DNA of 32,000 bases. Source: Xanthomonas campestris pv. campestris str. ATCC 33913 (GTDB lineage: Bacteria > Pseudomonadota > Gammaproteobacteria > Xanthomonadales > Xanthomonadaceae). Every line of letters begins with the position of its first letter. Within the stretch, counting starts at the first letter, position 1. Positions 14,291-18,659 of the stretch are shown here, one piece after another. Made by a program: the position numbers and the translations under genes. The DNA lies in NCBI RefSeq assembly GCF_000007145.1, contig NC_003902.1, positions 1,597,436-1,629,435 on the forward strand, in the 5' to 3' direction. Below the pieces are notes generated by a model that ran no database searches, was not told where the DNA came from, and worked only from the letters and a program-made list of their open reading frames with translations.

Positions 14291-14398
14291 ACCTGCGCGG
14301 CAACATCGCTTCGCCTGGCGGCCCGCGCGGTGGTGCGCGTTGCCGCATGCTGCACTCCCACGCATGCGCTGCATGCAGTCCCTTGCCAAGAGACCCTG

Positions 14399-15529
14399 AT
14401 GACCAGCGACGTCCTGCAACTGACCTGCGACCTCATCGCACGCGCCTCGGTGACGCCTGCCGATGCGGGCTGCCAGGCGCTCATCGCCGATCGCCTGAGC
14501 GCTGCCGGCTTCGCGTGCGAACACCTGCGGCTGGGCGCCGTCGATAACCTGTGGGCCACGCACGGCAGTGGCGCGCCCGTGCTGGTGTTGCTGGGGCACA
14601 CCGACGTGGTGCCCCCCGGGCCGGCGAGCGATTGGGCCAGCGACCCATTCGCGCCGCAGGTGCGCGATGGCGTGTTGTACGGACGCGGTGCGGCCGATAT
14701 GAAAGGCAGCGTGGCTGCGTTCGTGGTGGCTGCCGAGCAGTTTGTGGCTGCCCATCCGGAGCATCCGGGCACGCTGGCGGTGCTGCTGACCAGCGACGAG
14801 GAAGGGGACGCCATCGACGGCGTGCGCCATGTGGCCCGGCTGTTTGCCGAGCGCGGCCAGCAGATCGACTGGTGCATCACCGGTGAGCCATCGTCCACCG
14901 AGCGGCTGGGCGATCTGCTGCGGGTGGGCCGCCGTGGCAGCCTGTCCGGCAACCTGATCGTCAAGGGCGTGCAAGGCCACGTGGCGTACCCGCACAAGGC
15001 GCGCAATCCGATCCACCTGGCGGCGCCTGCGCTGGCCGAATTGATCGCGCGGCAATGGGACGATGGCTTCGAAAGCTTCCCGCCTACCAGCCTGCAGATT
15101 TCAAATATCCACGCCGGCACTGGCGCCAATAACGTGATTCCCGGCGAGCTGCAGGTGGCCTTCAATCTGCGCTACACGCCGCACTGGAATGCCGAAACGC
15201 TCGAGCGCGAGATCGTCGCGCTGCTGGAGCGGCATGCGCTGACTTACACGCTGGCCTGGCATCGCAGCGGCGAGCCGTTCTACACGCCCGAAGGCACGCT
15301 GCGGCGCGTGGCCCGCGAAGTGCTCGGCGCATTTGTCGGTGCACCGCCGGAGGAGAGCACCGGCGGCGGCACCTCCGATGCGCGCTTCATCGCACCGCTG
15401 GGTGCGCAATGCATCGAGGTCGGCCCGGTCAATGCATCGATCCATCAGGTGGACGAGCACGTGCGCGTGGCCGATCTGGAAGCGCTGCCGGCGCTGTACC
15501 GCACGCTCGTCGAGCGTCTGCTGGTCTGA
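14399..15529 (+). CDS. dapE: Succinyl-diaminopimelate desuccinylase
   Basis: ORF 14330..15529 trimmed to the ATG at 14399. [26 protein letters not shown]..., [26 protein letters not shown] and GGTSDARF are M20-family DapE blocks. Confidence 0.93.
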
Positions 15530-15722: not shown

Positions 15723-16595
15723 CTAGTCGAAGGTCCAGAACGGCGGTTTGATCGCCTCGCGCCAATGCGATGCGTCGGCGATGTAAAACCGCTGTGCGGA
15801 CGCCTTGGCAAACCAGATCGCCGCGGTTTCCTCGTCGCGCGTTACCCCACTGCTGCCGCGTCCCAGCAGTAGGGCGTAGAAATATTGCCCATACACATTG
15901 CCCTGGTCGGCCGCGCGTCGATACCAGCGCAGCGCTTCGGCACCATCCCTGTTCATACCGCCCATCCCCTTTTCGTAGAGCGCGCCAAGATCGACCTGCG
16001 CCTCGGCGTCACCGCCACGCGCACGGCGTTGGATGTCGCGCACCAGCGGATGGATGTCGCCGTCGCGTGGCGCGATGGCGGCGGGAAGCCCTGACGGTCC
16101 GGAGGCGGCGCGCTCGTAGATCGCGACGCGCAGATCCCAGCGCAACGCGGCGGCCGCTTCGCCGCGCTCACGGTGGAATTTGGCGAGCTCGCGAATGGCA
16201 TACGGGTTGCCGTGCATGGCCGCCGCCAGATACCAGCGCTCGCCCTTGCGTGGCGATGCCCGCAACGCCGCGCGCTGGTCGATGTAGGGGCTGTCTGCAT
16301 GCGTAAGCGTGCCGCTTGCCCAGATCCGGCCCAGTGCCAGCTCGGCAAGGGCATTGCGGAAGGTCCACGGCGTGGTTGCGGCGGCACGCTCATACCAGCC
16401 GATGGCGCGCGGATCGTTGCGGCTCTCCAGTTGGCTGGCGACCTCCCAGATGCTGTCAAAACTACCATCGGCAGCCGTCTGCTCCAGCTGTCGCAGTTTG
16501 GCAGGTTCGGTGCGCGGCGCCGTCGTGCTGCACCCTTGCAGCAGCACGAGTGGGATAAGGGCCGCAAACGCCAGGCGTCCGATGCGTGGGGTCAT
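15723..16595 (-). CDS. Sel1/TPR-like repeat lipoprotein
   Basis: ORF 15723..17213 trimmed to the ATG at 16595 (GGAAG 8 nt upstream). Lipoprotein-type signal MTPRIGRLAFAALIPLVLLQGC/S. Has Sel1-like repeats (A..WYERAA, AEAQVDLGALYEKGMGGMNRDGAEALRWYRRAADQGNVYGQYFYALLL). The upstream 206 codons of the track ORF run across the asnB leader and are not credible. Confidence 0.75.
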   Translation of the reverse strand: MTPRIGRLAFAALIPLVLLQGCSTTAPRTEPAKLRQLEQTAADGSFDSIWEVASQLESRNDPRAIGWYERAAATTPWTFRNALAELALGRIWASGTLTHADSPYIDQRAALRASPRKGERWYLAAAMHGNPYAIRELAKFHRERGEAAAALRWDLRVAIYERAASGPSGLPAAIAPRDGDIHPLVRDIQRRARGGDAEAQVDLGALYEKGMGGMNRDGAEALRWYRRAADQGNVYGQYFYALLLGRGSSGVTRDEETAAIWFAKASAQRFYIADASHWREAIKPPFWTFD

Positions 16596-16741
16596 TGCAG
16601 AGGCTTCCGACGACGGGGGCGACATTATCCGCGCAACGCGTCCGCGATCGCGCGGCGGCCTTGGAATGCCGGGCTTGCCGGCCCTGCTTGGTTGCCATCG
16701 CAACAGTTGCGTCGCCGCTGAAAGCGGGATACGGTCGGCCC

Positions 16742-16834
16742 ATGACATCGTTTCTGTCCAACGTCGCCAACGCCAATCACCGCAGCAATCTGCGCGCGAA
16801 TAATCGTGCGCGGCCGATGCGGGTCTGCGACTAG
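16742..16834 (+). CDS. Candidate Asn-rich leader peptide (30 aa) of an asnB attenuator
   Basis: atg aca tcg ttt ctg tcc AAC gtc gcc AAC gcc AAT cac cgc agc AAT ctg cgc gcg AAT AAT cgt gcg cgg ccg atg cgg gtc tgc gac tag. 6 of 30 codons are Asn. The ORF runs through the antiterminator 5' segment. RBS is weak or unclear. Confidence 0.35.
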   Translation: MTSFLSNVANANHRSNLRANNRARPMRVCD

Positions 16835-16883
16835 GCGAAGTACCAACACACACGCCCAGTTTCCAGAAAACCCGCATCGGCCG
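16811..16883 (+). promoter_or_regulatory. Candidate antiterminator helix of the asnB leader
   Basis: 14 nt CGGCCGATGCGGGT at 16811-16824 is an exact direct repeat of 16878-16891. It is therefore fully complementary to 16870-16883, which contains the whole 5' arm of the terminator. Confidence 0.45.
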
Positions 16884-16898
16884 ATGCGGGTTTTTTTT
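16867..16898 (+). terminator. Intrinsic terminator inside the asnB 5' leader (attenuator)
   Basis: AAAA-CCCGCATCGG/CCGATGCGGG-TTTTTTTT. The 20-nt palindrome is at 16871-16890 and the T8 run at 16891-16898. It ends 67 nt upstream of the asnB ATG, and no plus-strand gene lies upstream for it to terminate. Confidence 0.75.
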
Positions 16899-16964
16899 AT
16901 GGGTGATGTCTTGCACCGTGTTGATCCTTCGGCCGCCCATCACGACTTTTCCAGGAGTGTTTCC

Positions 16965-18659
16965 ATGTGTTCCATCTTCGGTATCTTCGGCCTGCAACCC
17001 GGCGACGACCTGCAGGCCCTGCGCCGGCAGGCCCTGGAATGTTCGCAGCGGCAACGCCATCGCGGGCCGGACTGGAGCGGCGTGTACGTCGATGCCGGTG
17101 CCATCCTGGTGCACGAGCGTCTGGCCATCGTCGACCCGGCGGGCGGTTCGCAGCCGCTGTTGTCGGAGGACGGCAGCCTGGCGTTGGCAGTCAACGGCGA
17201 GATCTATAACCATCGCGAACTCAAGGCCGAGCTATTGCAGCCGTACGCTTTTCAGACCGGCTCGGACTGCGAAGTGATCAATGCGCTGTACCGCGAAGAT
17301 GCACCGGCCTCCTATCTCAACCGCCTCAATGGCATCTTCGCCTTTGCGTTGTGGGACAAGGCCGCGGGGCGGGTGATCATCGCGCGCGACCCGATTGGCG
17401 TGGTGCCGTTGTACTGGGGACACGACCGCGAAGGCCGCCTGCGCGTGGCGTCCGAACTCAAGTCGCTGGTGGACGATTGCGCCGATGCCGCGCAGTTTCC
17501 GCCTGGCCATTGGTACGACAGCGCCACCGGCGCATTGAGCCGCTACTACGAGCGCTCGTGGCGCGAATACAGCGAAGTGGAAAATGTGCAGGTGCCGCTG
17601 CAAGAGCTGCGTGAGGCGTTCGAGCGCGCGGTGCATCGCCAGCTGATGACCGATGTGCCCTACGGTGTGCTGCTGTCCGGTGGCCTGGATTCGTCGTTGG
17701 TGGCGGCGGTGGCCGCACGCTACGCGCGGCACCGCATCGAAGAGAACGACACCACCGAAGCCTGGTGGCCGCGTCTGCATTCGTTCGCAATCGGCCTGAC
17801 CGGCTCGCCGGATCTGGCCGCTGCCGAAGTGGCCGCCGCCGCGCTCGGTACCGTGCACCATGGCTTCGAATACAGCTTTGAAGAAGGCCTGGATGCGTTG
17901 CCGGAAGTGATCCGCCATATCGAAACCTATGACGTGACCACGATTCGTGCGTCCACGCCGATGTTCCTGCTGGCGCGGCGCATCAAGGCGATGGGCGTCA
18001 AGATGGTGCTGTCCGGCGAAGGCAGCGACGAGATCTTCGGTGGCTACCTGTACTTCCACAAGGCACCGAACGCACGCGAATTCCACGAAGAACTGGTGCG
18101 CAAGCTCGATGCGCTCAACAACTACGATTGCCTGCGCGCCAACAAGTCGATGATGGCCTGGGGCGTGGAACCGCGCGTGCCGTTCCTGGATCGCGAATTC
18201 CTGGACGTGGCGATGCGCATGGACGCGCGCTTCAAGATGATCGACAAGACCAGCACCGGTGCCACCCGCATCGAGAAGGGCATCTTGCGCGAGGCATTTG
18301 CCGGCTATCTGCCGGAATCGATCCTGTGGCGGCAGAAGGAGCAATTCAGCGATGGCGTTGGTTATGGCTGGATCGACGGCCTCAAGGCACATGCCGCCGC
18401 GCACGTGAGCGATCGCGAACTGGCGGCGGCCGATCGGCGCTTCCCGGTGAACCCGCCGCAGACCAAGGAAGCGTATTTCTACCGCAGTCTGTTCGAGCAA
18501 TTCTTCCCCAGCCAGGCCGCTGCGGAGACGGTGCCGGGTGGCAAATCCATCGCGTGTTCGTCGCCGACGGCCATTGCCTGGGACGCGAGCTTTGCGGCGA
18601 TGGCCGATCCGTCGGGCCGTGCGATTGCCGGCGTGCACGCGCAGGCGTTGGCGTCCTGA
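16965..18659 (+). CDS. asnB: Asparagine synthetase B (glutamine-hydrolysing)
   Basis: ORF 16806..18659 trimmed to the ATG at 16965 (AGGAG 7 nt upstream). MCSIFGIFG... provides the N-terminal Cys nucleophile. Also has HRGPDWSG, LAVNGEIYNH and the SGGLDSS PP-loop. Confidence 0.96.
   Translation: MCSIFGIFGLQPGDDLQALRRQALECSQRQRHRGPDWSGVYVDAGAILVHERLAIVDPAGGSQPLLSEDGSLALAVNGEIYNHRELKAELLQPYAFQTGSDCEVINALYREDAPASYLNRLNGIFAFALWDKAAGRVIIARDPIGVVPLYWGHDREGRLRVASELKSLVDDCADAAQFPPGHWYDSATGALSRYYERSWREYSEVENVQVPLQELREAFERAVHRQLMTDVPYGVLLSGGLDSSLVAAVAARYARHRIEENDTTEAWWPRLHSFAIGLTGSPDLAAAEVAAAALGTVHHGFEYSFEEGLDALPEVIRHIETYDVTTIRASTPMFLLARRIKAMGVKMVLSGEGSDEIFGGYLYFHKAPNAREFHEELVRKLDALNNYDCLRANKSMMAWGVEPRVPFLDREFLDVAMRMDARFKMIDKTSTGATRIEKGILREAFAGYLPESILWRQKEQFSDGVGYGWIDGLKAHAAAHVSDRELAAADRRFPVNPPQTKEAYFYRSLFEQFFPSQAAAETVPGGKSIACSSPTAIAWDASFAAMADPSGRAIAGVHAQALAS

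Follow-up and report, generated by a model that had tools for sequence, protein, structure and literature searches.

A candidate asparagine-sensing leader-peptide attenuator upstream of asnB in Xanthomonas campestris and its relatives

The 5′ region of asnB, the asparagine synthetase gene in a 32,000-nucleotide (nt) stretch of DNA from Xanthomonas campestris pv. campestris ATCC 33913 (the window; 66% G+C), appears to carry a transcription attenuator of the ribosome-mediated, leader-peptide type, through which asnB expression would follow the supply of Asn-tRNA(Asn). We give this reading a probability of roughly 0.85, drawing on the sequence, on its comparison across species and on RNA folding models. 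A short open reading frame (ORF) rich in asparagine codons runs into the 5′ strand of a predicted antiterminator, which competes with an intrinsic terminator located before the gene. Four other explanations are weighed below where the evidence bears on them and are unlikely even when taken together. Our inferences from these data are the promoter with its leaderless start, a translated ORF, actual termination of transcription and a response to asparagine. The elements on which the argument turns are the following:

16742-16834, plus strand: leader ORF, MTSFLSNVANANHRSNLRANNRARPMRVCD, 30 codons and a TAG stop (16832-16834), 130 nt before asnB
16811-16826, plus strand: region 2, 5′ strand of the predicted antiterminator, CGGCCGAUGCGGGU(CU), within the last ORF codons (RPMRV)
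16870-16883, plus strand: region 3, 5′ arm and loop of the terminator, ACCCGCAUCGGCCG, pairing with region 2 (antiterminator) or region 4 (terminator)
16867-16898, plus strand: predicted intrinsic terminator, stem CCCGCAUC/GAUGCGGG (16871-16878/16883-16890), loop GGCC
16965-18659, plus strand: asnB, glutamine-hydrolysing asparagine synthetase B, 564 amino acids, candidate target of the attenuator

An asparagine-rich leader ORF

The leader ORF contains six Asn codons (AAC at 16760 and 16769; AAT at 16775, 16787, 16799 and 16802), the last two of which form a tandem AAT AAT at 16799-16804. Given the triplet composition of the window, at least six AAY triplets in 29 would be expected with a probability of about 7e-6. 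A first-pass annotation, made from the letters alone, had described this 30-codon frame with its six Asn codons and tandem pair, spanning the first copy of a repeated 14-mer and ending at a stop codon that starts 8 nt after it. Direct inspection of the coordinates agrees on each of these points.

Homologous leaders were collected through an AsnB protein search of contigs representing one genome per species, which yielded 80 loci; a leader was called where a small ORF with at least three Asn lay upstream of asnB. The resulting set of 50 comprises the window and 49 loci from different species and genera. Their peptides range from 19 to 42 amino acids and have diverged in sequence, sharing little besides Asn runs and the residues encoded by region 2, which themselves vary by clade (RPMRV, WRA(R/G)A, LPQAGD and PRVDD). 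Asn accounts for 308 of 1648 codons (18.7%) across the 50 leaders, compared with 1.6% in the AsnB proteins and a mean of 2.0% in 1912 background small ORFs of the same loci. An Asn content of at least 15% is reached by 78% of the leaders and by 0.2% of these background ORFs, and tandem Asn codons are found in 47 of the 50 leaders. The annotation had listed loss of the ORF or of its Asn enrichment in orthologous leaders as contrary evidence; across these leaders the enrichment persists while the remaining peptide sequence drifts.

Three further features speak to the reading frame. Inside the leader ORFs, 308 AAY triplets are in frame and 6 are out of frame. In-frame A-R-N triplets consist of 308 AAY, 11 AAR (Lys) and 39 AGN. 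In an alignment of 18 Xanthomonas-group sequences, gap runs come in multiples of three in 17 of 19 cases inside the ORF versus 5 of 69 after its stop. The frame bias of AAY, its excess over AAR and the indels in threes therefore point to translation and to selection, at the level of codon and frame, for Asn as an amino acid rather than for an RNA motif; translation of the ORF is probable.

These counts bear directly on the proposal that a trans-acting factor (Hfq or another protein bound to (A-A-N)n, a small RNA (sRNA) or a metabolite) sets a riboregulator in which the ORF is incidental. The AAY repeats formally fit the (ARN)n motif of the Hfq distal face, the U-tailed hairpin at the end of the element resembles that of Hfq-dependent sRNAs, and the leader ATG is not preceded by a Shine-Dalgarno (SD) sequence. 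Yet the near-exclusive use of AAY among A-R-N triplets is expected of amino-acid identity, and the Hfq (ARN)n reading was rejected on the AAY:AAR ratio. The frame moreover stays open to a stop just past region 2 despite the range of 19 to 42 codons, its indels come in threes, the promoter-ATG distance is fixed in 49 leaders, and no riboswitch fold, T-box or other Rfam family matched the window at gathering thresholds. Control by such a factor is thus very unlikely.

It is also conceivable that the leader ORF is translated and controlling while reporting general translation capacity, in the style of pyrBI or erm, instead of Asn-tRNA(Asn) specifically. Overlap of an ORF with an antiterminator does not alone prove amino-acid specificity, and Arg (15.8%) and Ala (16.9%) are likewise abundant in the leader peptides; however, these two occur as in GC-rich random frames, whereas Asn stands about nine-fold over background. 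Besides the residues encoded by region 2, only the Asn runs are conserved across clades, and the regulated gene makes asparagine. A sensor of general translation capacity accordingly has a slim chance of being correct.

Two peculiarities of codon choice accompany the Asn runs. The spacers between Asn codons are mostly Arg (mainly CGC) and Ala, as in NNRNN, NRNRN and NNNRANNNANR, and may be only GC-rich filler that supplies stem nucleotides. The rarer synonym AAT makes up 47% of the leader Asn codons (144 of 308), as opposed to 17% of those in the asnB genes themselves at these loci, a strong preference in the sensor for which slower decoding, or the need for an unstructured A/U-rich tip, is a plausible reason.

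Predicted, mutually exclusive antiterminator and terminator

The palindrome of the predicted terminator spans 16871-16890. A/U pairs lengthen its stem to 16867-16894, a T8 run (U8 in the transcript) occupies 16891-16898, and 66 nt separate this run from the asnB ATG (16965). The first-pass annotation had placed the palindrome and its T8 inside the asnB 5′ region and had noted that no upstream plus-strand gene is available for it to terminate; both observations stand. The nearest gene 5′ of the leader encodes a Sel1-repeat lipoprotein on the minus strand (15723-16595), and the next plus-strand gene in that direction, a dapE-like gene (14330-15529), ends at 15529. Because the upstream gene is divergent, the hairpin ends no neighbouring gene, and its assignment as the terminator of one was rejected.

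The 14-mer CGGCCGATGCGGGT has copies at 16811-16824 and 16878-16891, and 16870-16883 is its reverse complement. These three matches in the window compare with 0.13 expected, and none of 100 shuffles reached three. The annotation had already seen that the 14-mer is duplicated and that its first copy is complementary to 16870-16883; a direct check and a repeat search of the window, which recovers the same inverted-repeat arms for the 14-mer and the palindrome, bear this out. Pairing of 16811-16824 with 16870-16883 yields a perfect 14-bp antiterminator helix that cannot coexist with the terminator. Folding of the segment 16730-16905 surpasses that of 200 of 200 dinucleotide shuffles (z = -3.7), and its minimum free energy structure is the antiterminator. 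As isolated helices, the antiterminator duplex (-31.4 kcal/mol) is far more stable than the terminator hairpin (-18.4 to -20.3 kcal/mol). The expectation that the antiterminator would be the stronger of the two therefore holds at this level, but fails for the whole leader (16742-16905), where the comparison of folds suggested by the annotation gives two nearly isoenergetic states (-65.0 and -68.6 kcal/mol). In these models, such near-equal energies are what a switch should look like. A simple promoter and terminator scan of the window listed neither this terminator nor the leader promoter described below.

An 11-nt match of 91% complementarity is also found between the start of region 2 (16807-16817) and the interval between the terminator and the SD sequence of asnB (16929-16939). 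It is at chance level and conserved within Xanthomonas only, and could represent a further long-range pairing in the readthrough transcript.

Covariation across clades

In each clade, the last ORF codons are complementary to the terminator 5′ arm, and both change together:

Xanthomonas group: region 2 GCGGGU, terminator 5′ arm ACCCGC
Rhodanobacteraceae: region 2 GGCGGGCC, terminator 5′ arm GGCCCGCC
Lysobacter (locus L019): region 2 GCAGGCCGG, terminator 5′ arm CCGGCCUGC
Lysobacter (locus L035): region 2 CGCGGGC, terminator 5′ arm GCCCGCG

The eight-pair core of the antiterminator is 87% paired in a 49-sequence alignment. Two-sided changes are present at six of its eight pairs, for example U-A in the Xanthomonas group versus C-G or G-C in Rhodanobacteraceae. 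In 500 shuffles, neither the pairing nor the covariation score observed was reached, and pairing drops to 27-45% when the partner is slid by 1-3 columns. Even within the Xanthomonas group, two leaders (L008 and L015) match a C-to-G change in region 2 with a G-to-C change at the paired position of the terminator loop. The terminator itself is 94% paired with covariation at three pairs, and a GC-rich hairpin with a T-tract lies at the same place in 49 loci; the terminator finder mis-picks the hairpin of L038 and misses that of L037, whose T-tract is weak. The alignment of asnB upstream regions, a check put forward by the annotation, hence shows an Asn run that is conserved and helices that covary throughout the order.

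A chance combination of features in a GC-rich intergenic region has to be considered at 66% GC, where spurious long ORFs and GC-rich hairpins are common. The shuffle and codon statistics, together with recurrence of the arrangement in 49 other species with covariation, effectively refute it.

Ribosome position and the proposed mechanism

The influence of the ribosome was modelled at the decision point, with the transcript extending through region 3 and a 30-nt ribosome footprint held unpaired, in 48 leaders. The model was ended after region 3 because equilibrium folds of the full terminator are uninformative for most homologues. With the mask at the stop codon, the median probability of pairing between regions 2 and 3, P(2:3), is 0.02 and exceeds 0.5 in only 3 of 48 leaders. 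Moving the mask to one of the last four Asn codons gives values above 0.5 in 48 of 48 (Wilcoxon p = 7e-15). In equilibrium folds of the window's full leader, the terminator probability is 0.94 when the ribosome sits at the stop codon, and the antiterminator probability is 0.71-0.75 when it sits at the second- or third-last Asn codon. Across the leaders, the placement of the Asn codons and of the stop codon with respect to region 2 is conserved. The footprint model thus agrees with the geometry put forward in the annotation, in which a ribosome at the stop codon allows the terminator and a stall at Asn codons frees the antiterminator.

A further element may hold region 2 before the decision is made:

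16780-16822, plus strand: candidate 1:2 protector or pause structure, a 10-bp hairpin CUGCGCGCGA(16790-16799)-AUAA-UCGUGCGCGG(16804-16813)

The tandem AAU AAU codons lie at the tip of this hairpin, which is stacked on CCGCA(16780-16784):UGCGG(16818-16822) and occupies the 5′ half of region 2. It appears in folds of co-transcriptional prefixes, before region 3 has been made, and is 91.5% paired in the 18 Xanthomonas-group leaders versus 23-49% in slid controls. Outside the Xanthomonas group, other clades use other pairings for the 1:2 structure.

In the proposed mechanism, transcription would begin with the A of the leader AUG or a neighbouring nucleotide, and a 70S ribosome would load as the 5′ end emerges. 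When Asn-tRNA is plentiful, the ribosome would pass the six Asn codons and reach the UAG at 16832, its footprint covering the 3′ half of region 2. Region 3 would then be left without a partner, the terminator (16871-16890 and U8) would form, and RNA polymerase would stop 66 nt before asnB. With Asn-tRNA in short supply, the ribosome would stall at Asn codons, mainly within 16787-16801, with the 1:2 hairpin melted and region 2 free. Region 2 would subsequently capture the emerging region 3 in an antiterminator of 14-16 bp, blocking the terminator and permitting readthrough into asnB.

Points against an attenuator

Several observations weigh against this mechanism. In the window, a ribosome with the last Asn codon in its A site gives a terminator probability of 0.90, because a ribosome there already covers part of region 2. 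Once the complete terminator is present, equilibrium favours it in most homologues at any ribosome position; the switch must therefore be kinetic, as in trp. With no ribosome at all, the antiterminator probability exceeds 0.5 in 31 of 48 leaders (about two thirds). Support for the protector hairpin is likewise mixed: its covariation in the 18 Xanthomonas-group leaders is only modest, with few compensatory changes, and RNAalifold favours an alternative local hairpin, 16809-16815:16822-16829, within region 2. There are thus two candidate protector hairpins that involve region 2 in these models. Translation of the leader ORF hangs on the predicted leaderless start, as the leader ATG is without an SD sequence. 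The logic also requires direct charging of tRNA(Asn) by asparaginyl-tRNA synthetase, since the GatCAB route would uncouple charging from free Asn. Finally, in Luteimonas cellulosilyticus (L020:2342-2465) the ORF is cut to 20 codons and region 2 is deleted, with the Asn run and terminator kept. The model predicts that this leader is locked in the terminated state unless another pairing substitutes.

Predicted promoter and a probable leaderless start

Two sequence features lie immediately upstream of the leader ORF:

16707-16735, plus strand: predicted sigma-70-type promoter, -35 TTGCGT (16707-16712), 17-nt spacer, -10 TACGGT (16730-16735)
16691-16704, plus strand: inverted repeat GTTGCcatcGCAAC, directly 5′ of the predicted -35

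Only 6 nt separate the -10 hexamer from the leader ATG. When 49 leaders are stacked without gaps on this ATG, TTGC recurs at -35 to -32 (T at -35 in 84%), a TAnnnT-like hexamer at -12 to -7 (T at -7 in 61%), and C at -2 in 76% and at -1 in 48 of 49. This spacing places the predicted +1 at or next to the A of the ATG (16742). The leader mRNA is therefore probably leaderless, with the ORF read from a 5′-AUG. In Xanthomonas, 14% of mRNAs are reported to be leaderless, with no SD consensus (PMC3300014), and leaderless leader peptides have been proposed for Deinococcus deserti (PMC4007540).

A third GTTGC following GTTGCcatcGCAAC forms the predicted -35 (16691-16712). The repeat is kept in Xanthomonas, Stenotrophomonas, Luteimonas and some Pseudoxanthomonas; Rhodanobacteraceae and Lysobacter lack it. 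A transcription factor may bind there as a second layer of control, which the attenuator model does not need. In two loci (L004 and L005), a repeat of this type overlaps the stop codon of the upstream dapE-like gene.

Relation to known attenuators

Canonical leader-peptide attenuation covers Trp, His, Phe, Leu, Thr and Ile/Val. Like trpL, hisL, pheL, thrL, leuL and ilvL/ivbL, the asnB leader is a short ORF rich in codons for the end-product amino acid. As in the classical enterobacterial attenuators, a predicted terminator precedes the structural gene, the last part of the ORF holds the 5′ strand of the antiterminator, and the stop codon is so placed that a ribosome completing the peptide would block the antiterminator; the regulatory codons would lie in or near a candidate 1:2 hairpin. 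It differs from them in the amino acid predicted to be sensed (Asn), in a single candidate target gene, asnB, in lacking similarity by sequence or covariance model, and in a start without an SD sequence on an mRNA predicted to be leaderless. In contrast to trp superattenuation, the untranslated asnB leader is predicted to favour readthrough in most homologues.

Other bacteria link asparagine to gene expression by different means. Asn-specific T-boxes in Firmicutes and AsnC control of asnA in E. coli raise asparagine synthesis or charging when Asn or charged tRNA(Asn) is low. T-boxes likewise rely on competition between terminator and antiterminator; unlike the asnB leader, they recognise uncharged tRNA by binding it themselves, and their conserved fold would be picked up by Rfam. 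AsnC acts as a DNA-binding protein, whereas the sensor proposed for the asnB leader is the translating ribosome.

A permissive Rfam scan of 16550-17000 (E <= 10) returned as its best matches Thr_leader (RF00506, 20.9 bits versus a threshold of 55) and Leu_leader (RF00512, 19.0 versus 50), and these sub-threshold matches cover the terminator part only. Six representative leader peptides gave no NCBIfam match at E <= 10 and no relevant Pfam match. A close parallel for the start is the set of leaderless leader peptides of the Deinococcus (PMC4007540) and mycobacterial type, which also combine a 5′-terminal AUG with enrichment of the cognate amino acid upstream of a gene for its metabolism. These differ in belonging to other phyla, and in the asnB leader the start site is deduced only from promoter geometry; the words "asparagine" and "Asn" occur nowhere in the main text of that paper. 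A genome-wide survey of attenuators (PMC2965389) mentions neither asnB nor asparagine, and an Asn leader is likewise undescribed in PMC4007540, PMC3300014, PMC13054055 and PMC3771888. Full-text searches of openly accessible literature turned up no Asn-rich leader or asnB attenuator, so that "undescribed" is provisional. Rfam, NCBIfam, Pfam and this literature thus accord with the annotation, which had known of no Asn-sensing leader for asnB.

By its Asn specificity, probable leaderless start and order-wide conservation, the asnB leader is well supported by sequence comparison as a new family within a known mechanism of attenuation. The probable leaderless start, the two candidate protector hairpins and the order-wide distribution go beyond what the annotation had noticed. 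If correct, it would add an amino acid to the canonical list. It would also explain the regulation of asparagine synthesis in a whole order that includes the plant pathogens of Xanthomonas and the hospital pathogen Stenotrophomonas maltophilia. As a compact, conserved example of a probable leaderless leader peptide in Gammaproteobacteria, it would be useful for studies of transcription-translation coupling. Thousands of "hypothetical protein" names could be replaced, and a new RNA family added to Rfam.

Distribution of the leader

Presence of the leader coincides with one AsnB clade on the phylogeny. The architecture occurs in all loci of that clade with enough upstream contig, except L030 and L051. 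The genera represented are Xanthomonas, Stenotrophomonas, Pseudoxanthomonas, Luteimonas, Thermomonas, Lysobacter, Arenimonas, Rhodanobacter, Dyella, Fulvimonas, Frateuria and Dokdonella. Among the 80 loci surveyed, those of Shewanella, Aeromonas, Alteromonadales and other, more remote AsnB lineages lack the element. It always lies immediately upstream of asnB and co-oriented with it, though the 5′ neighbour differs (dapE in L004 and L005, the Sel1-repeat gene in the window).

This linkage is relevant to the notion that the element is an independent small gene, encoding a protein or an sRNA with its own terminator, and that the asnB promoter lies downstream of 16898. Many Stenotrophomonas genomes list the peptide as a "hypothetical protein", the S. 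maltophilia version being found on more than 1000 contigs under that name only. The 25 to 220 nt between terminator and asnB in homologues, where some species carry mobile REP-like elements, likewise speak for an independent gene. Against it, the peptide is not conserved beyond Asn and the region 2-encoded residues, the element stays directly upstream of asnB despite its differing 5′ neighbours, and a conserved antiterminator over the terminator would be purposeless for a stand-alone gene. We consider an independent small gene highly unlikely.

The REP-like palindromic repeats, e.g. GGCCATGGATGGCCGGTATGCCGG..., are located between the terminator and asnB in L025, L027, L033, L035, L036 and L043. 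Such insertions shift the leader up to about 400 nt upstream and leave it intact.

The two exceptions within the clade, L030 ("Rhodococcus sp. RD6.2") and L051 (a "Deltaproteobacteria" metagenome-assembled genome (MAG)), have asnB genes nested among those of Lysobacterales (74% identity to the window) and no leader within 700 nt of asnB. They may reflect horizontal transfer followed by leader loss, or else contamination or mis-binning. Conversely, two MAG contigs of the clade labelled Gemmatimonas/Gemmatimonadaceae (L052 and L053) carry a leader like the Arenimonas type, promoter and leaderless geometry included, and this likeness suggests transfer or mis-binning. A looser version with three Asn codons, a 5′ untranslated region and unrelated sequence is present in L056 (Rubricoccaceae, Rhodothermales) and L066 (Longimicrobiaceae), possibly as independent inventions.

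A bolder extension would make the Asn-specific leaderless attenuator the founding example of its kind and the main Asn-responsive control of asparagine synthesis in Lysobacterales, carried with asnB by horizontal transfer into Gemmatimonadota (L052 and L053) and with an analogous element in Rhodothermales and Longimicrobiaceae (L056 and L066). Its abundant terminated product of about 155 nt, with in-frame (AAY)n = (A-R-N)n and a U-tailed hairpin, could double as an Hfq-binding, trans-acting sRNA that reports asparagine sufficiency. As a whole, this extension is improbable.

The asnB gene and its surroundings

By its sequence matches, the product of asnB is a genuine asparagine synthetase B. 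It contains the Pfam domains Asn_synthase (3.7e-88) and GATase_7 (4.9e-41), matches E. coli AsnB (1CT9) over its full length (E = 5e-218) and is 97% identical to AsnB of Xanthomonas sp. Leaf131. Direct reading of the sequence locates the translation signal of the gene:

16953-16957, plus strand: Shine-Dalgarno sequence AGGAG of asnB, 7 nt before the ATG

As its downstream neighbour is encoded on the minus strand, the gene is taken to be monocistronic. According to Qian et al. 2013, as cited in PMC13054055, Xanthomonas asnB is regulated by diffusible signal factor (DSF)/Clp, and AsnB is tied to virulence and oxidative-stress resistance in X. oryzae pv. oryzicola. Apart from DSF/Clp, no regulation of Xanthomonas asnB was met in the literature searched.

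The Sel1-repeat lipoprotein gene separates the dapE-like gene from the asnB leader in Xanthomonas. No gene intervenes between dapE and the leader in Pseudoxanthomonas and some Stenotrophomonas. The Sel1 gene therefore appears to have been inserted into what looks like the ancestral order, glnD-dapD-dapE-asnB.

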